Shown here in pieces: positions 3,814 to 41,560 of a DNA stretch of 64,000 nt (position 1 is the first letter of the stretch; the number at the start of each line of letters is the position of its first letter). The translations under genes and the position numbers were made by a program. The notes below the pieces were generated by a model that was given only the letters and a program-made list of their open reading frames with translations, did not search any database and was not told the DNA's origin. This DNA comes from Escherichia coli (lineage in GTDB: Bacteria > Pseudomonadota > Gammaproteobacteria > Enterobacterales > Enterobacteriaceae): the NCBI RefSeq assembly GCF_044647545.1, contig NZ_CP172818.1. The stretch is one strand, 5' to 3'.

Positions 3814-3855
3814 TGACGATGCCGGGCGTGGGTTGTTGGCGTCCGGCTTTATATC

Positions 3856-4550
<695 letters not shown>

Positions 4551-4653
4551 AACCCGCCGATTGCGCTACAATGCCCGCCCTTAAAGTGGGGGCACTCCCC
4601 TAACCGCTTCATCAGGTGAAGCGGATCTGACCTGTCATCAGAACGAGAGAATT

Positions 4654-6099: not shown

Positions 6100-6190
6100 G
6101 CTGAAAAACATAACCCATAAAATGCTAGCTGTACCAGGAACCACCTCCTTAGCCTGTGTAATCTCCCTTACACACACGGGCTTATTTTTT
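6100..6190 (+). ncRNA. cyaR: Hfq-dependent, CRP-activated small RNA CyaR (RyeE)
   Basis: Near-exact match to remembered CyaR sequence (GCTGAAAAACATAACCCATAAAATGCTAGCTGTACCAGGAACCACCTCCTTAGCCTGTGTAATCTCCCTTACAC...GGGCTTATTTTTT) ending in hairpin plus U-tract; located just after yegQ as expected. Confidence 0.85.
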
Positions 6191-8940: not shown

Positions 8941-9981
8941 TCAGGGAATGAGCAACACTTTGCCCGGCATAGCATTACGAGCGATGTCACGCACCGCCTG
9001 GGCGAAGCTTTCAAAGCTTCCACGGTGAGCGATTAATGGCTCCAGGCTTAACTTACGTTCTGTCAGCAACCGGCTCGCCGTTTCCCACTCCTGCCCCGGC
9101 CAAGGGCTGGAGTAGTTCATCCAACTGCCGATAACCGTCAGCTCTTTACGCAATATTTTGCCAAACGTTGCCGATGTTAAATGCAGATCCTGATGCAACG
9201 TGCCCACCAGCGCCAGCTGGGCATGAGGCCCGGCAATCTCTACCGCCAGTTCGACGGTTTGCGGGACGCCAGCCGTCTCGAGGATAAGCTGATTAAAGCG
9301 CAGCTCGCGTAAAACGCCCTGCATTTGCGGCGCGCTCATTTCAAGGCTGTTAAATGTTTGCATCGCACCGAAAGATTTTGCCAGTGCCAGTTTTTCTGAG
9401 CTAATGTCGATAGCCGTCACACTCTTTGCTCCCAGCGCGACAGCGCACTGAATGGCCAGCAGGCCAATGGTTCCGGCACCAATAATAATAACGTTTTTAT
9501 TCTCACAACCTTGCGCTAAATGAAAAGCATGCAGGCCAACGGTAATCGGTTCAATAAAAGCCCCTTCCTCAATAGGCATATCCGCAGGTAGAGCAAAGAC
9601 ATTTTTCCGCTTAACGACAATATATTCGGCAACCCCACCATCACGCCGTGAGCCAATAAAATCATATTTTGCGCACTGGGAATAAAACCCTTTCAGACAC
9701 TCTGGACAAGTAAAACAGGGTAATAACGGCACACAGGCAACCGCATCGCCAGGATGTAAATCATCAACACCGGATCCCACCGCATCAATATAGCCGCTAA
9801 ATTCATGGCCTAACGTTATTGGATAATAATGTGCACCATTTTTAAATATCCTGGGTAAATCGGAACCACATACGCCCGAGCTGGCAATTTTTACCCGCAC
9901 CTCATCCTGATGATTAATTTCAGGAATGACTCGTTCTTCAACGCGCACGATACCATCAGTATCATTCACCACTGATTTCAT
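8941..9981 (-). CDS. gatD: Galactitol-1-phosphate 5-dehydrogenase (Zn-dependent)
   Basis: 346 aa; MDR/Zn-ADH motifs (GHEFSG, Cys cluster CFTCPEC, Rossmann GAGTIG). Confidence 0.92.
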   Translation of the reverse strand: MKSVVNDTDGIVRVEERVIPEINHQDEVRVKIASSGVCGSDLPRIFKNGAHYYPITLGHEFSGYIDAVGSGVDDLHPGDAVACVPLLPCFTCPECLKGFYSQCAKYDFIGSRRDGGVAEYIVVKRKNVFALPADMPIEEGAFIEPITVGLHAFHLAQGCENKNVIIIGAGTIGLLAIQCAVALGAKSVTAIDISSEKLALAKSFGAMQTFNSLEMSAPQMQGVLRELRFNQLILETAGVPQTVELAVEIAGPHAQLALVGTLHQDLHLTSATFGKILRKELTVIGSWMNYSSPWPGQEWETASRLLTERKLSLEPLIAHRGSFESFAQAVRDIARNAMPGKVLLIP

Positions 9982-14420: not shown

Positions 14421-14452
14421 CAGGCAAAAAAAACGGCCTCCCGGGGAAGCCG
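14421..14452 (-). terminator. Rho-independent terminator downstream of fbaB
   Basis: On minus strand: CGGCTTCC-CCGG-GGAGGCCG hairpin followed by T8. Confidence 0.6.
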
Positions 14453-14536: not shown

Positions 14537-15589
14537 TCAGGCGATAGTAATTTTGCTATCGAGATAAACGTCCTGTACGGCGTTAATCAGTTTCACGCCG
14601 TCAGCCATCGATTTCTTGAAGGCCTTACGTCCAAGAATCAGCCCCATTCCGCCTGCGCGTTTGTTGATAACCGCAGTACGCACTGCATCGCTGAGGTCAG
14701 TTTCACCGCCTGCAGCACCGCCGGAGTTTATCAACCCGGCCCGGCCCATATAGCAGTTAGCTAACTGATAACGCACCAGGTCAATCGGGTTTTCACTGGT
14801 CAGTTTGCTGTAGACTCGATCGTCGGTATAACCGTAATTAATCGCTTTATAGCCGCCGTTATTTTCCGCCATTTTTTGTTTGACGATATCTGCACCTATG
14901 GTTGCCGCCAGATGGTTCGCCTGACCAGTCAGGTCGGCGGAAACATGGTAATCAACGCCATCTTTCTTAAAGGCGGAGTTACGCAAATAGGCCCACAGCA
15001 CTGTCACCATGCCCAGCTCGTGCGCACGTTCAAAAGCCGCAGAAATTTCTTCAATCTGGCGACGTGACTCTTCCGAGCCAAAATAGATAGTCGCCCCAAC
15101 CGCCACCGCGCCCATATTGAACGCCTGCTCCACGCTGGCATACAGCGTTTGATCGTAGGTATTCGGGTAACTTAGCGTCTCGTTGTGATTAAGTTTGACG
15201 AGGAATGGAATGCGATGCGCGTAACGCCGCGATACCGATGCCAGCACGCCGTAAGTTGACGCCACACAGTTACAGCCCGCTTCGATCGCCAGTTCAACAA
15301 TGTTTTTCGGGTCAAAGTAGAGCGGGTTAGCGGCAAATGAAGCTCCGGCAGAATGCTCAACGCCCTGGTCAACCGGCAGAATAGAAAGATATCCTGTGCC
15401 AGCCAGACGCCCGGTGTTGTACAACGTCTGCATATTACGTAACACCGCTGGCGGGCGATTATTGTCAATCATCACGCGGTCTACGTAGTCATGTCCGGGG
15501 AGATAAAGCTGGTCAGAAGGAATAGTCATACAACGGTGCTGTAAAAGGTTGTCGGCGTCTTTGCCAAGCAACTGCGCAATATCTGTCAT
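14537..15589 (-). CDS. fbaB: Fructose-bisphosphate aldolase class I (FbaB)
   Basis: 350 aa from [16 protein letters not shown]; DhnA-type class I aldolase; ORF-track start (15661) over-extended by 24 codons. Confidence 0.9.
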
Positions 15590-22869: not shown

Positions 22870-22904
22870 TACTGGGGGGTAGTATCAGGTACTGGGGGGG
22901 AGTA
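22870..22904. promoter_or_regulatory. Two RcnR operator sites (TACT-G6/7-N-AGTA) in rcnR-rcnA divergent promoter region
   Basis: Direct reading: TACTGGGGGGTAGTA (22870-22884) and TACTGGGGGGGAGTA (22890-22904), matching the remembered RcnR G-tract operator pattern. Confidence 0.8.
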
Positions 22905-22941: not shown

Positions 22942-23745
22942 ATGACCGAATTTACCACTCTTCTTCAGCAAGGAAATGCCTGGTTCTTCATCCCCAGCGC
23001 CATCTTACTTGGTGCGCTTCATGGCCTGGAACCAGGGCACTCAAAAACGATGATGGCGGCGTTTATCATCGCCATCAAAGGCACCATTAAACAGGCGGTG
23101 ATGCTCGGACTGGCAGCAACCATTTCGCATACCGCGGTGGTCTGGTTGATTGCCTTTGGCGGGATGGTAATCAGCAAACGTTTTACTGCTCAATCTGCAG
23201 AACCGTGGCTCCAGTTGATTTCCGCGGTGATCATTATTGGCACCGCGTTCTGGATGTTCTGGCGTACCTGGCGCGGCGAACGCAACTGGCTGGAGAATAT
23301 GCACGAGCACGAGCACGAGCACGAGCATGATCATGAGCATCATCACCATCACGAACATGGCGAGTATCAGGATGCCCATGCACGAGCCCATTCCAATGAC
23401 ATTAAAAGACGATTTGATGGTAGAGAGGTCACCAACTGGCAAATTTTGTTATTTGGCTTAACCGGTGGCCTTATCCCCTGCCCGGCAGCAATTACCGTGC
23501 TGTTGATTTGCATTCAGTTGAAAGCCCTGACACTGGGCGCAACACTGGTCGTCAGTTTTAGCATTGGCCTGGCGTTAACGCTTGTCACCGTAGGCGTTGG
23601 CGCAGCAATCAGCGTTCAGCAGGTCGCAAAACGCTGGAGCGGATTTAACACTCTCGCTAAACGCGCCCCCTATTTTTCCAGTCTGTTGATTGGCTTAGTT
23701 GGTGTGTATATGGGCGTACATGGCTTCATGGGCATAATGCGATAA
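22942..23745 (+). CDS. rcnA: Nickel/cobalt efflux protein RcnA with His-rich cytoplasmic loop
   Basis: 267 aa; TM helices plus HEHEHEHEHDHEHHHHHEH loop encoded by hexanucleotide repeat. Confidence 0.92.
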   Translation: MTEFTTLLQQGNAWFFIPSAILLGALHGLEPGHSKTMMAAFIIAIKGTIKQAVMLGLAATISHTAVVWLIAFGGMVISKRFTAQSAEPWLQLISAVIIIGTAFWMFWRTWRGERNWLENMHEHEHEHEHDHEHHHHHEHGEYQDAHARAHSNDIKRRFDGREVTNWQILLFGLTGGLIPCPAAITVLLICIQLKALTLGATLVVSFSIGLALTLVTVGVGAAISVQQVAKRWSGFNTLAKRAPYFSSLLIGLVGVYMGVHGFMGIMR

Positions 23746-24383: not shown

Positions 24384-25418
24384 TTAGTCGTATTTCACGT
24401 TGATTAATGCGGTTGCCTCCAGTGCGCCAGATTTAACTTTGTTTGTATCGTAGACGTAGTAACTGGCTGTTATCGGAATTGAAACCGTTGTATCTGTAAG
24501 TTTTGACTTCGCCGCAACTTCCTTTAAATTTGTATATCCTTTACTGCTGTTAGTGATATTTAAAAGTGTGACTGGCGAACCATTACTTTCAAGAATAAAT
24601 CCTACGCCATTATCTTCCGCACCTTTCAGTATTGTGTTGCTGTTGGTTAACAAGTCAGAACTTGATAAATACACCTGCATTTTCCGTGATGTTTGATTTT
24701 GTTGACCTAATAAATTTTTACAACGCAGAATAATATCCCCTTGTTTACTATTTATTGTTGCTTTGTTACCTGTGGCTGGTAATTGTGAAACGGGAATACT
24801 GTCTAAAGTAATTAATAAATCGTCCGGTTTGCAGGTTGTGGTTATCGGGTTGTATGACAATGTCAGATTAAAGGAATAGACACCTGCATTTTGTGCCAAT
24901 GCATTTCTGTAGCTATTTACACATGCATCCCATGACTTGCCACCTAATAAACACAGTAGAAATTGTACTGCGGCACTCCCGCGTGTCGATGATGAAGCAC
25001 TGGATAATGTCGCAACACCATTAATCATCACTGAACCGCCGCCCCCCGCAGAAACATTCACTTTTGCATTACTGGCCGCAGGTGTCACCGTAACTGAATA
25101 ACCACTGGTGAAACTGGTCTGATTATTTGACAACGTGATGTTGTTTTTATTGGTCCATTCAAAATGTAAATTTAATTTTATGGTATCGTTATAAAGTCCA
25201 ACAATAATATCCGACGGGCTCATAGGGGTGATAGTATTTGTACTTACGCATGACGAATCATTAAAATTATGCTCATATGTCGCCATTTGTGTTTGAGTAA
25301 GTGCAAAATCCCCCTGAACAACCAAGTTGTGCTGAACAGATAACTCACTATAACATGCCGCATAGCTCACAGGCATAACCATCATCATTAATATAAATAG
25401 CATTATGCGAATTTCCAT
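24384..25418 (-). CDS. yehA: Fimbrial adhesin-like protein YehA (chaperone-usher pathway)
   Basis: 344 aa; signal peptide; last gene of yehDCBA. Confidence 0.85.
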   Translation of the reverse strand: MEIRIMLFILMMMVMPVSYAACYSELSVQHNLVVQGDFALTQTQMATYEHNFNDSSCVSTNTITPMSPSDIIVGLYNDTIKLNLHFEWTNKNNITLSNNQTSFTSGYSVTVTPAASNAKVNVSAGGGGSVMINGVATLSSASSSTRGSAAVQFLLCLLGGKSWDACVNSYRNALAQNAGVYSFNLTLSYNPITTTCKPDDLLITLDSIPVSQLPATGNKATINSKQGDIILRCKNLLGQQNQTSRKMQVYLSSSDLLTNSNTILKGAEDNGVGFILESNGSPVTLLNITNSSKGYTNLKEVAAKSKLTDTTVSIPITASYYVYDTNKVKSGALEATALINVKYD

Positions 25419-25433
25419 AGAACCACCTGACTA

Positions 25434-27928
25434 TTACTGGCAAATATAATTTCTACTTTCATCAATCTCTTTACCGAAGGTGATTGTGCATGAAAGTCCT
25501 TGTTGCTTATCAATTGCTACATTAACCGATGGCGGTACTTCATTGGTGCGAATAAATAACTGGCTTCCCTGGCCGACAACACCAATATTATGACCATGGA
25601 TATCATTGACTTCATAACCAAACGTTAATGGTTGCCCATCCGCTCTTAACGCTTTTATAAACCATGGCTTGCGCTGATCGGTATCAAAATTAACCAGTAC
25701 AACCGCGCCGCGATAAGGGGCGGCAATTTTCCGGTTGCCACGTAATTCTGCTTCGCTATCGCTTTGCGACACATCCAGCATCAGGTGATTTTCCCGATAA
25801 GGTGTCATTCCGTCGTATACCACCACTCCATTACGGTTTGTTGTGCGATATTTTTGCCCATTGACATAAGCATCTTTAATTCCTGGCGCATTCATTACAG
25901 CAAACGTTTCGGAAAGACGGTTCGCCAGATTAACGCCACCCGACCAGGCGACAATGCCCCCTGAAACACTGGCTCCAGCCTGTCGATAAGTACTCGACTG
26001 ACTATAACTGCCATTCACCGTTGCCACCGGCGCGTTCCAGGTTAAATTAGCTCCAGCTGTCGTTTCATTTCCCTGATGCTGATGACTCAGGTTGACCCCA
26101 TAGTTAAATTGATCCCGGCTTCCAACGGTTCCCGATAATCCCGTATTATTTGAGGCAAAACCCTGATCATCAAACGTCGTTGAGTTAGACATATATATTT
26201 GCCGACGAGGCGTCGTAGCGTCATCACCCCAATCAAAGGGAATCGATATAAAAATATTAAAACGTTTCTCTTCATGATGATTCTCGTCATAAGCCTGGCT
26301 TGCCGCGAGGGTATAGCTTATCCGTCGCAGGTTGTTGGAATAACTCAACTGATAATCCTTACTGCTGCCGCTACGCCCCCAGTAATCTCGCCATAACGTA
26401 CTTAAGGACACAGAACCCCAGCCTTCTGGCAATGACTGGCTCATATTGGCAGAAAAGCTATTTTTACGGCCAAAATCGTTCTGGTAATAATCGGCAATGT
26501 CATAGATATCGTTTTCATCACGGCGATATTTATCTTTATTGTTTGCCCAAACGTGATCGTTAAATGTCCGGTAATCACGCGACGAATAACGCCAGGCCGC
26601 CAGACCAAAACGCGTCGACGTTTGGCTCACAAATTTGTTGTAGGCAATTTGATAACTTTGCCCGTCAAACACATCGCCGTTGTCTTGTTTACTATGCGAC
26701 TTCGTGGCATCGACGGAAATGGCACCAATGCGTGTATTCCAGCCAGTCCCCAAAGTGAACGCGTAATAATTATTCGCGACCATCGATCCGCCATACAGCG
26801 TCAATAAGTTATTAAAACCATACTGATAACCCGCCTGAACAAAATCACTTTGTTTGCTCGCCCCTTCAATATGGCTACGACCTGCCGCAAAATCATATTT
26901 CGACACGCCGGGTTGCAGCATATTCGGCACCGCTGCATAAGGCACCAGATAGGTGGTTACCGAACCGTCCGCCTCTTTCACGCTGACATCAAGATCTGCT
27001 CCACCACCGGCCAACTGCAAATCTGTAATCGCAAACGGGCCAGGAGGAACCTCTTTCTGATAAACCACAAAACCGTTCTGTTCAATAGTTACCAGCGCGT
27101 TACTCTGAGCAATCCCCTGCACCCGTGGAGTAAAATTTTGTTTCGAGTTAGGCAACATCTGCATATCACGAAACAACCGCACACCGCTGAAGCGAACAGA
27201 ATCAAAAATATCGCTTGATGTGTACATATCACCCACGCGAAGCGTGCCGAGAAGTTGGGCAAATCCACGTTCCAGATACAGGGTATTGCTTTTCCACACC
27301 CCTGGATTGCTATTTGTTTTACTGAAACTGGCATCAGAATGCAGTTGCCACCCCAGTAAGTTTAACCCGCTGTTAAAACGTACATATGTACTCTTGCTAT
27401 TACCCGACGCTTTATAGTCGCTGTAATACTGACTCACATAATAAGAGGTATAAAACGCATTAATACCCCGCTCCCAGTTTTCCGGTGGAACATAGCCACT
27501 TTCCAGTTCTTCCACCCACGCCTGCGGGACACTGAAATCGAGACGAAAAACTCCGATATCCCAGGTATAGCTCCCCCCTGAACAAGTTGCTCAAATGTTA
27601 AACATTGCTTACCGCTGGCAAAGTTATCGGTATTAATGCCTAACCGCTTGATAATTTCCCTTGATATACATGTTTCTTGCAGGTTGTCTTTAACAATAAT
27701 CTCATATTTCCCGCGCCATTGCTTATTGACATAAATATCGATGTCATACTGCCCCGGCAAGGGTTGATTATCATCAAGACGAATATTTGCAACCTGCTGG
27801 TCTTTCATTCCACCTATCATAAAATGGGTATCAAAGGTTTCTTCAGCTGCATAAGCTTCAATGCCGAGCAATAACGCTACGATTGCTGATGCAAGTGGGG
27901 TCATTCTCAACATAGGCAGCTCCTGCAA
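25434..27928 (-). pseudogene. yehB: Outer-membrane fimbrial usher YehB, disrupted by a single-base frameshift in a homopolymer (or sequencing error)
   Basis: Two ORFs in different frames (27434..27928 N-terminal fragment, 25434..27515 remainder); frame switches at C6 run 27573-27578 (minus-strand G6); restoring one G gives continuous ...FEQLVQGG-SYTWDIGVFRLDFSVPQAWVEELESGY... Confidence 0.8.
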
Positions 27929-28603
27929 TTAAATTTTGTCACTAATATAGTTGCCATGGTCATCGATAATGGTCAGATGCCAGTTATTCGCATTATTACT
28001 TTTGACATTAATACTCTGACTTTCTAAGGGGGCAATCATAATAGTTTCATAATTGACTTTGACATTATTAGCTTTGACATCCGAAATCGTCACCCAATTT
28101 GCTGAGTCATTTTTTATCACCAATCCATTGCCACTGCGATTTACCAGTAACTTTTTAAATGTCGCTTTATTTACCGGTGCAATACCCGCAGGCCGGTAAA
28201 ACAATTTGATTCTGTTTTGCATTGCAAATTTCAGTGCATTCTTGCCCTCTTGCTCTGGACTATTTGGTGGAATATCCAGAACATTCAGATAAAAAATGCT
28301 CTCTTTATTAGTGGGCAGTTTATTCGGCATAATTTTGATTTTTACTTGCTGCCCGGAATTTGCCCCTATTTTTGCCACTGGTGGCGTTAACATGAAAGGA
28401 ACCTGAATTTTTTCTGGTGGTAACGACGTATCGCCATCATCAATCCACGCCTGCAGCAGCGAAGAACGGTTTCCCTGGTTCATCAACTGCACCATCACTT
28501 CTTTATTTTCTGCCGGGTAAATAATGCGCGTCCCATAGATAACAATTCCGGCATGCGCAGGAAGGACCATAGAAGAAATGAGTAAAGCTAATAATCCTTT
28601 CAT
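27929..28603 (-). CDS. yehC: Periplasmic fimbrial chaperone YehC (PapD-like)
   Basis: 224 aa; signal peptide; PapD-like chaperone. Confidence 0.88.
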   Translation of the reverse strand: MKGLLALLISSMVLPAHAGIVIYGTRIIYPAENKEVMVQLMNQGNRSSLLQAWIDDGDTSLPPEKIQVPFMLTPPVAKIGANSGQQVKIKIMPNKLPTNKESIFYLNVLDIPPNSPEQEGKNALKFAMQNRIKLFYRPAGIAPVNKATFKKLLVNRSGNGLVIKNDSANWVTISDVKANNVKVNYETIMIAPLESQSINVKSNNANNWHLTIIDDHGNYISDKI

Positions 28604-28683: not shown

Positions 28684-29226
28684 TTAATCCTGCGCCACAC
28701 GCATAACCAGAGAAGATAACACATCACCTGATTGCACTGAATTATCTGTCAGCTTCAGGTATTTTGCTTTAAACGGAATAGCATATTGACCTTCCGCTGT
28801 TTTATAACTCTCAATGTTAAAAGGTGCAGAAACATCCAGGACATCGCTGTTATCACCTAAATAGAGATAGTACCCCACGGTATCGTTGCTACTGGCTATC
28901 GCCTTATCGTTTCCGGTTATTTTCTCGTTGGTAATCAACGAGAGTTTTACACCAGCAACTTCTTTCGGACAGCTAATTTTTAACATGCTGCTGGTTACAC
29001 CGACTGCATCATCATAGGTCGAGTATTTAGCTTTACCTTCAAAGACAGTGGTTGGTACAGTTGGCATATTAATACTTACTGAATCGCCACCCGCTTCGAA
29101 TTTACACGGAGATTCTGCAATATTCCCTTTAATGGTTAATGTTCCGGTATCAACGTCTGCGGCAAATACCCCAGCGCTCATAAAAAAAGAAGAAAAGACA
29201 GCGGCAGCAATAATTGAACGTTTCAT
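28684..29226 (-). CDS. yehD: Fimbrial major subunit-like protein YehD
   Basis: 180 aa; signal peptide (MKRSIIAAAVFSSFFMSAGVFA), pilin fold with conserved Cys pair. Confidence 0.88.
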   Translation of the reverse strand: MKRSIIAAAVFSSFFMSAGVFAADVDTGTLTIKGNIAESPCKFEAGGDSVSINMPTVPTTVFEGKAKYSTYDDAVGVTSSMLKISCPKEVAGVKLSLITNEKITGNDKAIASSNDTVGYYLYLGDNSDVLDVSAPFNIESYKTAEGQYAIPFKAKYLKLTDNSVQSGDVLSSLVMRVAQD

Positions 29227-37278: not shown

Positions 37279-40200
37279 ATGGACAAGGAATTACCGTGGC
37301 TGGCGGATAACGCCCAACTGGAACTGAAATATAAAAAAGGCAAAACACCACTCAGCCATCGCAATTGGCCGGGCGAACCGGTGCCTGTTATCACTGAAAA
37401 CCTCATCCAGACACTGGGTGATAAATTGCTACACATTGCTGAGAAGAAAAAAAACATTGTCTGGCGTTATGAAAATTTTTCACTGGAATGGCAGTCCGCC
37501 ATCACGCAGGCCATCAACTTGATCGGCGAGCACAAACCCTCAATTCCGGCCCGGACAATGGCGGCGCTAGCCTGTATCGCGCAAAATGATAGCCAACAGT
37601 TACTCGACGAAATCGTCCAACAAGAGGGACTGGAATATGCGACTGAAGTGGTGATTGCACGCCAGTTTATTGTACGGTGTTATGAGAGTGATCCTCTGGT
37701 AGTAACATTGCAGTATCAGAAGGAGGACTATGGCTATGGCTATGGCTATGGTTATCGCTCAGAAACCTATAACGAATTCGATCTCCGACTGCGTAAGCAT
37801 CTCTCTCTGGCAGAGGAAAGCTGCTGGCAGCGTTGCGCCGACAAACTCATTGCCGCACTGCCAGGACTACCCCAAGTTCGCCGTCCTTTTATTGCACTCA
37901 TCCTCCCGGAAAAACCAGAAATCGCCAATGAGTTGGTAGGCCTTGAATGCCCGTGGACTCATTTTCATTCTAAGGAGTGGTTAAAAGTTGTTGCTACTGA
38001 CCACAGGGCAGTGGGAAAACTCGAACGCTACTGGAGCCAGGATATATTTAGCGATCGCGAAGCCAGCTACATGTCGCATGAAAACCACTTCGGCTACGCG
38101 GCCTGCGCCGCCCTTTTGCGCGAACAAGGAATTGCAGCCGTTCCACGCCTCGCGATGTATGCCCATAAAGAAGATTGCGGTAGCCTGCTGGTAAAAATTA
38201 ACCATCCGCAGGTCATCCGCACCCTGCTGTTAGTTGCTGATAAAAACAAACCCAGCCTGCAACGTGTGGCTAAATACAGTAAAAACTTCCCCCATGCGAC
38301 GCTTGCCGCACTGGCAGAGCTTCTGGCGTTAAAAGAACCGCCTGCACGCCCTGGTTATCCAATCATCGAAGACAAAAAGCTGCCTGCACAGCAAAAAGCT
38401 CGAGATGAATACTGGCGTACGCTGTTACAAACGCTGATGGCATCGCAGCCACAACTGGCAGAAGAGGTGATGCCGTGGTTAAGTACTCAAGCCCAGGCAG
38501 TGCTGGATAGTTATTTATCGGCACCGCCCAAAACGGTTATTGATAGCACCGATAACATCCAAATGCCTGAAATCCTCGTTTCACCACCGTGGCGTAGTAA
38601 GAAAAAAATGACAGTTCCACGTCTTGATTTGGCACCGTTCGAATTAACGCCGCAAGTTTACTGGCAACCAGGCGAACGAGAGAGGCTTGCCGCCACTGAG
38701 TCTGCCCGTTATTTCAGCACGGAATCTCTTGCGGAACGCATGGAACAAAAAAGTGGACGAGTTGTATTACAGGAGCTGGGTTTTGGAGATGATGTATGGC
38801 TGTTTTTGAATTATATACTCCCCGGAAAACTGGATGCTGCACGCAATTCACTCATTGTTCAGTGGCATTACTACCCAGGGCGGGTTGAAGAGATCATGAA
38901 TGGCTGGAGCTCCCCGGAAGCTCAATTAGCAGAACAGGCGCTTCGCAACGGTCACGTAGAAGTGTTAATTAACATATGGGAAAATGACAGCTACTCACGC
39001 TATCGTCGGGAAAAGAGTATCTGGAACCTGTATTTATTGGCGCAGTTGCCGCGTGAGATGGCTTTGACTTTCTGGCTACGTATCAATGAGAAAAAGCATC
39101 TGTCTGCGGGAGAGGACTATTTTCTCAGTATCTTCGGATTGGATGCTCTACCAGGTCTGCTGTTGGCTTTTTCACATCGTCCAAAAGAAACATTTCCATT
39201 AATTTTAAATTTCGGCGCAACAGAACTGGCCCTGCCCGTTGCCCGCGTCTGGCGACGTTTCGCGGCGCAGCGTGATCTGGCTCGCCAGTGGATTTTACAT
39301 TGGTCGGAACATACAGCTACTGCACTTATCCCTCTTGTCTTCACCAAATCCAGCGATAATAGCGAAGCTGCATTACTTGCCCTGCGTTTACTTTACGAAC
39401 AGGGACATGGCGAGTTACTGCAAACCGTGGCAAACCGCTGGCAGCGTACAGATGTATGGCCTGCCCTGGAGCAATTACTTAAACAGAGTCCAATAGAGAT
39501 TTACCCGACACGCATTCCAAAAGCCCCTGATTTCTGGCAGCCGGCAATGTGGTCCAGACCGAGACTTATCACGAATAATCAACCTGTTACTGATGATGCT
39601 CTGGAAATTATCGGCGAAATGCTGCGCTTTACCCAGGGCGGACGTTTTTATTGTGGGCTGGAACAACTGAAAACGTTCTGCCAGCCACAAACGCTGGCCG
39701 CTTTTGCCTGGGATCTCTTTACCGCGTGGCAACAAGTTGGCGCCCCCGCAAAAGACAACTGGGCATTTCTGGCGTTAAGTCTCTTCGGTGACGAAAGCAC
39801 GGCTCGGGATCTGACAACACAGATCCTCGCCTGGCCACAGGAAGGCAAATCTGCCCGTGCCGTCAGTGGCCTGAACATACTTACCCTGATGAATAATGAT
39901 ATGGCGCTGATACAGCTGCATCATATATCGCAACGGGCGAAATCCCGTCCCTTACGTGATAACGCGGCGGAATTTCTTCAGGTGGTCGCAGAAAATCGTG
40001 GACTAAGCCAGGAAGAGTTAGCGGACAGATTAGTCCCAACACTGGGCCTGGATGATCCGCAGGCGTTGATATTTGATTTTGGTCCCCGGCAGTTTACCGT
40101 TCGCTTCGATGAAAACCTCAACCCGGTTATCTTTGATCAGCAAAACGTTCGCCAGAAAAGCATTCCCCGGTTGCGCGCCGATGACGATCAGCTGAAAGCG

Positions 40201-40983: not shown

Positions 40984-41304
40984 ATGATCGTGCAAAAAGA
41001 GCTGGTCACTATTTACGATTATGAGGCCCCTGTACCTGAAGAGCCGTTTTCCTTCAGACTTGAGATCCATAAATGCTCTGAATTATTTACAGGTTCCATC
41101 TACCGGCTGGAGCGATTCCGGCTACATCCAACATTTCATCAACGTGATCGAGAGGATATCGACCCGCTAATAAATGATGCGTTGATTTATATAAGAGATG
41201 AGTTTATTGATGAGCGAAAATTACGGGGCGAATCACCAGAAACGGTAATAGCCATTTTTAATCGTGAACTACAGAATATATTCAACCAAGAAATAGAAAA
41301 ATAG
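40984..41304 (+). CDS. yehK: Small uncharacterized protein YehK
   Basis: 106 aa; no recognisable domain; AT-rich codon usage unlike neighbours; hairpin terminator immediately downstream (~41309-41336). Confidence 0.7.
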   Translation: MIVQKELVTIYDYEAPVPEEPFSFRLEIHKCSELFTGSIYRLERFRLHPTFHQRDREDIDPLINDALIYIRDEFIDERKLRGESPETVIAIFNRELQNIFNQEIEK

Positions 41305-41469
41305 CTTTATTAAAGGGGGAAACGGTATTCCCCTTTAGATGTGTTTTATTTTCCCGTTACTCAAAAAAATAAATAAACCGAAAAAAAGCCACTAATAGCT
41401 CCAGTACGGAAATAAGCAGGGTTAATTTTTTGTCAGTGTGTCCATCCCTTCTCTTTATAAAGGAGGGCA

Positions 41470-41560
41470 ACACCACTTTTTACCTACCCCCCCCTTTATT
41501 TTTTTTATTCGAACCATTTCCCCCCCGAAGGCCCCCCCCCCCCCCCCCCAACCCTTGAAA
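41470..41560. other. Anomalous low-complexity stretch with poly-C (17 nt), poly-T and C-rich runs; probable sequencing/assembly artefact
   Basis: Direct reading: ...tacctacccccccctttattttttttattcgaaccatttcccccccgaaggcccccccccccccccccaaccc...; same character as the 3856-4550 anomaly. Confidence 0.55.

Follow-up and report, generated by a model that had tools for sequence, protein, structure and literature searches.

A missing G in the yehB fimbrial usher gene of an Escherichia coli genome record is probably a repeat-length error and not a mutation

The usher gene of the yeh fimbrial operon, yehB, cannot be read through in one Escherichia coli genome record, its frame breaking at a run of six G. 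The first-pass annotation had left open whether a sequencing error or a real slipped-strand event stands behind the break, and the evidence assembled here leans to error, with a real event still possible as the less probable of the two. We analysed a stretch of 64,000 nucleotides (the window) that covers the E. coli region mdtD-baeSR-yegP...gat-fbaB-yegTUV-thiMD-rcnRAB-yehABCDE-apbC-metG-yehI...btsSR-osmF-bglX-dld-yohF, and in which the yehD-yehC-yehB-yehA operon lies on the minus strand between rcnB and yehE-apbC-metG. Upstream of yehB on the same strand are yehD, the major fimbrial subunit (28684–29226; intact, 180 aa; Fimbrial domain), whose exact protein is found on at least 1,000 contigs, and yehC, the periplasmic chaperone (27929–28603; intact, 224 aa), both named after the annotation of relatives, with PapD_N and PapD_C matches to yehC on homologous loci. 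Downstream follows yehA, a putative tip adhesin (24384–25418; intact, 344 aa; Fimbrial domain), present as the K-12 allele in an ST648-type backbone. At the homologous place, between yehA and yehC, the gene is named yehB in more than 5,000 RefSeq genomes.

Locus and gene order are those of the E. coli Yeh fimbriae (yehDCBA; gamma4 chaperone-usher class, with Stc as the Salmonella counterpart), from which the window departs in that the usher frame breaks after codon 114 and in that the adhesin allele is of K-12 type whereas the rest of the operon is of ST648 type. Wurpel et al. 2013 (PMC3559732) place Yeh among the core-associated fimbriae and call it “functional but cryptic”; its induced or forced expression yields thin flexible fimbriae and increases adhesion to HeLa cells (Elpers and Hensel 2020, PMC7098969).

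We read the frame break directly from the sequence, a kind of observation to which a chance test does not apply. Plus-strand positions 27570–27579 read gctcccccct, which gives a C6 run at 27573–27578 and hence G6 on the coding minus strand. The run falls in codons 112–114 of the 826-codon gene (25434–27913), in the 5′ coding part of a gene for a surface structure, and relatives with an intact gene have CAG GGG GGG AGC at this site. The open reading frame that starts at the ATG at 27913 begins MLRMTPLASA, and by eye its N-terminus (MLRMTPLASAIVALLLGIEAYA/AEE) looks like a putative Sec leader. Its native part ends in CLTFEQLVQGG, after which 45 unrelated residues lead to a TGA at 27434–27436, giving an N-terminal fragment of 159 aa (27434–27913; 114 native and 45 out-of-frame residues). 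The frame adjoining the break continues SYTWDIGVFRLDFSVPQAWVEELESGYVPPENWERG... and is free of stops on the minus strand down to 25434. This remainder (25434–27572; codons 115–826 in the original frame, 712 codons) encodes what is left of the N-terminal domain together with the Usher and C-terminal domains, and has neither a start codon nor a signal peptide of its own. In relatives with G6, gene callers mark here a 667-aa, GTG-started piece that overlaps the upstream stop, which is probably a construct of the gene caller. As written, translation would leave the frame after residue 114 and end 45 codons on.

Insertion of one G after CAG yields a single 826-aa frame, in which PapC_N (PF13954) is matched at residues 26–161, Usher (PF00577) at 177–743 and PapC_C (PF13953) at 753–813. 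Taking these three domains over about 800–880 aa as the mark of the usher family, the repaired product is a full member, and it scores 1748.5 bits against NCBIfam NF011763 (cut-off 933) with coverage of 1–826 of 826. In the gene as written, only residues 26–114 match Pfam PapC_N, corresponding to profile positions 1–98 of 146. The repaired YehB equals WP_022645863.1 of ST648-type E. coli in all but the last residue. Orthologues are intact at 826 aa in DFL.5, MS6198 and the loci L034–L040, the usher being intact in all seven NCBI loci sampled via the ST648-type yehA; against these the window’s frame is broken and ends at a premature stop, which makes it a frameshift pseudogene as written. The first-pass annotation had named the broken gene as the yehB usher, placed the break at the C run, read ...FEQLVQGG upstream with continuation in the next frame, and held that a single missing G suffices; the NF011763 match, the RefSeq annotations, a second reading of both frames on the minus strand and the one-base repair bear it out on each of these points.

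The state from which the base went missing is itself restricted within the species. Most E. coli have no homopolymer at this site (CAG GGT GGG AGC), and a 34-mer carrying GGGTGGG occurs in at least 3,630 of 5,426 complete genomes. The G7 tract is derived and lineage-specific: in codon 113 of the common GGGTGGG form, GGT became GGG, which is a synonymous change. The first-pass annotation had proposed comparing tract length among isolates, and with the window’s own flanks (exact 82-mer) this gave 83 complete genomes with G7, among them the ST648-type MS6198 and the strain “ST648”, one with G6 and none with G8. Its assumption that G7 is the intact state is sound for the window’s lineage, where intact relatives have G7, and fails for the species at large, where GGGTGGG prevails. 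About 60 complete genomes have a yehB that is the same as the window’s apart from one base more (G7), and 12 have G7 on a second yehB haplotype. The single complete genome with G6, N4220121, is annotated “frameshifted”. At the tract, TTCAGGGGGGAGCT represents G6 and TTCAGGGGGGGAGCT represents G7. A query with the G7 34-mer returned no matches, which contradicts the 82-mer count; we discarded that result and attribute it to low-complexity masking in BLAST.

What surrounds the missing base in this record was assessed against E. coli DFL.5 (NZ_CP104843.1), a genome reached by look-up of the window’s exact GatD. Over about 62 kb the two show zero substitutions, and DFL.5 has an intact yehB with G7. 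They differ by six events: two patches of junk sequence, an (AC)2 insertion, a G5>G4 contraction, a patch of K-12 sequence and the G7>G6 contraction in yehB. The first junk patch (3906–4544) replaces the parD/parE toxin-antitoxin pair of relatives; it begins as a slightly wrong copy and decays rightward into runs of C9, G27, A14, A28, A18 and T10, with the exact match resuming at 4545, and it lies wholly within an ST648-specific insertion (3848–4562) that is absent from K-12. The second (41334–41553), in the yehK-yehL spacer, likewise decays from left to right (runs C8, T8, C7 and C18) before an abrupt return to exact match, and it lies wholly within a segment (41304–41554) present in ST648-type genomes and lacking in K-12. 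Exact look-up in the protein collection of the open reading frames of these patches, and of the 694-aa GTG-started C-terminal frame of yehB (with M as first residue), found none of them.

The four-base (AC)2 insertion (6174–6177) is in the yegQ-yegR intergenic region, where the window has (AC)4 at 6170–6177 against (AC)2 in DFL.5, MS6198, N4220121 and AR_0077; the longer form was seen in no compared genome. The G5>G4 contraction (14443–14446) is in the gatY-fbaB intergenic region, with CCCGGGGAAG and CCCGGGGGAAG as the alternatives; among the roughly 12 relatives checked, G4 is confined to the window and ST648-type relatives have G5. The K-12 patch spans 976 bp (24468–25443), covers yehA and the last three yehB codons, and is 100% identical to MG1655 and also to C600, J53, TG1 and many natural strains. 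The adhesin allele of DFL.5 (WP_022645862.1) aligns to the window’s yehA in the C-terminal half only, with 47% identity. Chimerism of the record would account for the patch, as would a very recent replacement of the allele. A K-12-referenced consensus was considered as its source and rejected, the K-12-specific IS3 in gatR and the ogrK remnant being missing from the window.

One substitution-like difference from other relatives was also followed. GatD has GGVAEY at window position 9633, compared with GGFAEY in MS6198, N4220121 and AR_0077. We considered an error at a homopolymer boundary and rejected it, since the exact protein is widespread (listed in 1,664 blocks of the protein collection) and DFL.5 has it.

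Mutation accumulation in E. coli yields about ten substitutions per indel. Three repeat-length indels with zero substitutions reverse this natural ratio; taken with the K-12 patch and the junk sequence, they indicate that the record, and not the organism, has been altered, and the position of both junk patches inside segments present in ST648 and absent from K-12 points to a problem of process and not to biology. At yehB itself the indel is confined to a homopolymer and is missing from DFL.5 and from the approximately 60 genomes with an otherwise identical gene, and the same record carries the further error-like features described above. We consider it probable that the missing G is a repeat-length error at the level of the record, one that arose during base-calling, assembly or downstream processing of the data, rather than a mutation that the cell carried; we infer that it shares its origin with the other differences from DFL.5. 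The case resembles known homopolymer-length errors of assemblies in that a G/C run is one base short where the nearest relative’s is not, in that another G contraction and junk occur in the same record, and in that public sequencing runs which shorten other tracts contain this contraction too. It differs from them in that most long homopolymers are correct and in that the allele also occurs in apparently clean data. Among runs of at least 5 bases, length relative to DFL.5 was changed in 2 of 50 G/C runs and in 0 of 250 A/T runs; the window’s other G7 runs (6825 and 22894) and all A/T runs of 7–8 keep their length, which means that the record is not error-prone at homopolymers in general.

The occurrence of G6 elsewhere counts against an error and supports a real pseudogene, in which slipped-strand mispairing during replication would have dropped one G from G7 in the source strain, putting the usher, and thereby the cryptic Yeh fimbriae, out of action. 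Given the poor expression of yeh, such a loss would be nearly neutral and could persist. The exact 159-aa product occurs on more than 20 contigs in public collections. Contigs with G6 were produced by many runs, spread over three archives, and represent at least five sub-backgrounds of the ST648-type haplotype; they include clean Logan contigs of 6–65 kb from several archives (L041/L008, L044, L049 and L007), several of which are clean across 6–22 kb. G6 is found as well on the second yehB haplotype (P0005; at least 60 contigs, loci L020–L025), whose intact relatives have G7. The shared allele in the complete genome N4220121 and in clean contigs of many independent runs, on several sub-backgrounds and a second haplotype, argues for genuine loss in some strains, and over 64 kb N4220121 departs in run length from MS6198 at the yehB tract alone. 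Further states of the tract fit a mutable run: L045 has G9, and L042 has a G7A>G8 deletion with the same protein product as G6. The gene is also frameshifted at other sites, by T4>T3 at the equivalent of window position 25789 in AR_0077 and by an A deletion at 27003 in strain N3, both annotated “frameshifted”, and the yeh cluster was intact in only 92% of the strains in one dataset (PMC3559732). Real G6 alleles probably exist, and the window’s source could be such a clone.

The same survey also holds evidence against a cellular origin. N4220121 has at least 99.96% identity to the window outside the three patches and also reads G6. We considered it as the nearest relative, which would have confirmed G6 by descent, and rejected this: with AR_0077 as outgroup it groups with MS6198, which has G7. 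At 15323 and 48744 the window has the outgroup state, while MS6198 and N4220121 share the derived one, and the sole character common to the window and N4220121 alone is G6 itself, so that the two G6 alleles are independent and that of N4220121 did not reach the window by descent. Separately, look-ups of the 159-aa and 667-aa fragments found no G6 contig with the window’s K-12-type yehA except L012, in which the 3′ end of yehB differs from the window’s. Another conceivable route to G6, loss of the T in GGGTGGG, is unlikely, as the intact relatives of both G6 haplotypes have G7; contig L019 carries a different deletion, GGGTGG.

Part of the public signal has the look of error too. In three G6 contigs (L046, L047 and L048), other G or A runs, at 22874, 22894, 24301 and 24324, are shortened as well, which shows that the yehB tract is under-called in error-prone data; on this pattern the public G6 signal is at least partly technical. 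The tract appears fragile in cells and in sequencers alike, which illustrates that runs vulnerable both biologically and technically can arise through a synonymous change. A real loss starts from a low prior, with G6 in 1 of 84 complete genomes having the haplotype’s flanks and in 1 of 5,426 overall, and the chance of an error per run (several percent) exceeds the population frequency of G6 (~1%), which favours an artefact. The zero-substitution relative DFL.5 has G7, and all other differences from it look technical. A true slipped-strand pseudogene in the source strain is on these grounds a possibility to which we give some weight, but which we regard as doubtful.

Clustering of the 159-aa product at 90% identity gave 85 members, in which the one-base deletions differ but fall in the same 60-nt stretch and all members share one out-of-frame stop; the corresponding region for these relatives (proteins P0002–P0015) is window 27380–27620. 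The deletions are located in the G run, in ACC TGG (a CCTGG Dcm site; ...SYTGIS...) and in the T5 run of GTTTTTCG (...DIGVFVSIS...). The class at the Dcm site may represent methylation-related base-calling errors.

Length variation of a poly-G tract early in a surface-structure gene can also be read as reversible switching, in which slippage would turn Yeh ON (G7) and OFF (G6 or G9). Slipped-strand contingency genes with poly-G tracts are familiar from surface genes of Neisseria, Haemophilus and Campylobacter, and yehB is like them in having such a tract in the 5′ coding part of a surface-organelle gene, with several lengths among isolates. G6, G7 and G9 all occur in public data on closely related backgrounds, and G6 appears repeatedly and independently. 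Unlike in those genes, the yehB tract is only 7 bases long and variation affects ~1% of genomes; lengths other than G7 are rare (83 complete genomes with G7, one with G6 and none with G8), and some of the variation comes from runs with other homopolymer errors. The GGGTGGG of most E. coli cannot slip, and the tract is accordingly not a conserved design feature. Phase variation as an established property of the locus is extremely unlikely. A related reading, in which the GGT>GGG change would have made yehB a nascent contingency locus in ST648-type and some other E. coli, with recurrent OFF variants of the G6, G8-like and G9 kind, we regard as very unlikely.

A homopolymer at the junction of two frames is the sole point in favour of programmed recoding, in which full-length YehB would be recovered from the G6 template through +1 frameshifting by the ribosome or slippage during transcription. 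Orthologues, the closest relatives included, are single-frame, and the two-frame arrangement is not conserved among them. In E. coli, transcriptional slippage is known to be efficient on longer A/T runs. Recoding is close to negligible as an account of the break.

The two main readings differ in what they would mean. If the record is in error, the annotation alone is affected, and yehB would be wrongly labelled a pseudogene; the damage to the window’s record in several places means that single-base anomalies in it need read-level support. If the loss is real, the product would be a 159-aa periplasmic fragment in which a portion of the usher N-terminal domain is followed by a nonsense tail; the plug, barrel and C-terminal domains would not be made, no Yeh pili would be assembled, and there may be a polar effect on yehA. 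Since yeh is cryptic, such a loss would cost little, and it would add one further case to the neutral losses of cryptic fimbrial ushers, homopolymer slippage being a well-known route to pseudogenes. In both cases it is an ordinary kind of event and of little importance.

Fimbrial pseudogenes of other Enterobacteriaceae, in Shigella and Salmonella Typhi, are alike in that a one-base frameshift disables an essential assembly gene in an otherwise intact operon. Shigella is described in one preprint as retaining adherence operons of E. coli in which one or more critical components are affected (bioRxiv 10.1101/514679), and the fimbrial clusters of S. Typhi are the subject of PMC5809473. In those host-restricted pathogens the losses are part of a decay across the whole genome, whereas the yehB event is isolated, rare and possibly not real.

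Repeat-associated differences among relatives were also seen elsewhere in the window. In the rcnR-rcnA intergenic region (22890–22904) the window has TACT-G7-AGTA, which we take to resemble the RcnR operator motif; N4220121 has GGGAGGG there, and two Logan runs have G6. Relatives differ in the number of in-frame 6-bp GCACGA units at 23295–23312, in the His-rich region of rcnA, with products of 267 or 269 aa, and in the number of in-frame 6-bp CTATGG units at 37728–37745, in a DUF4132 gene.
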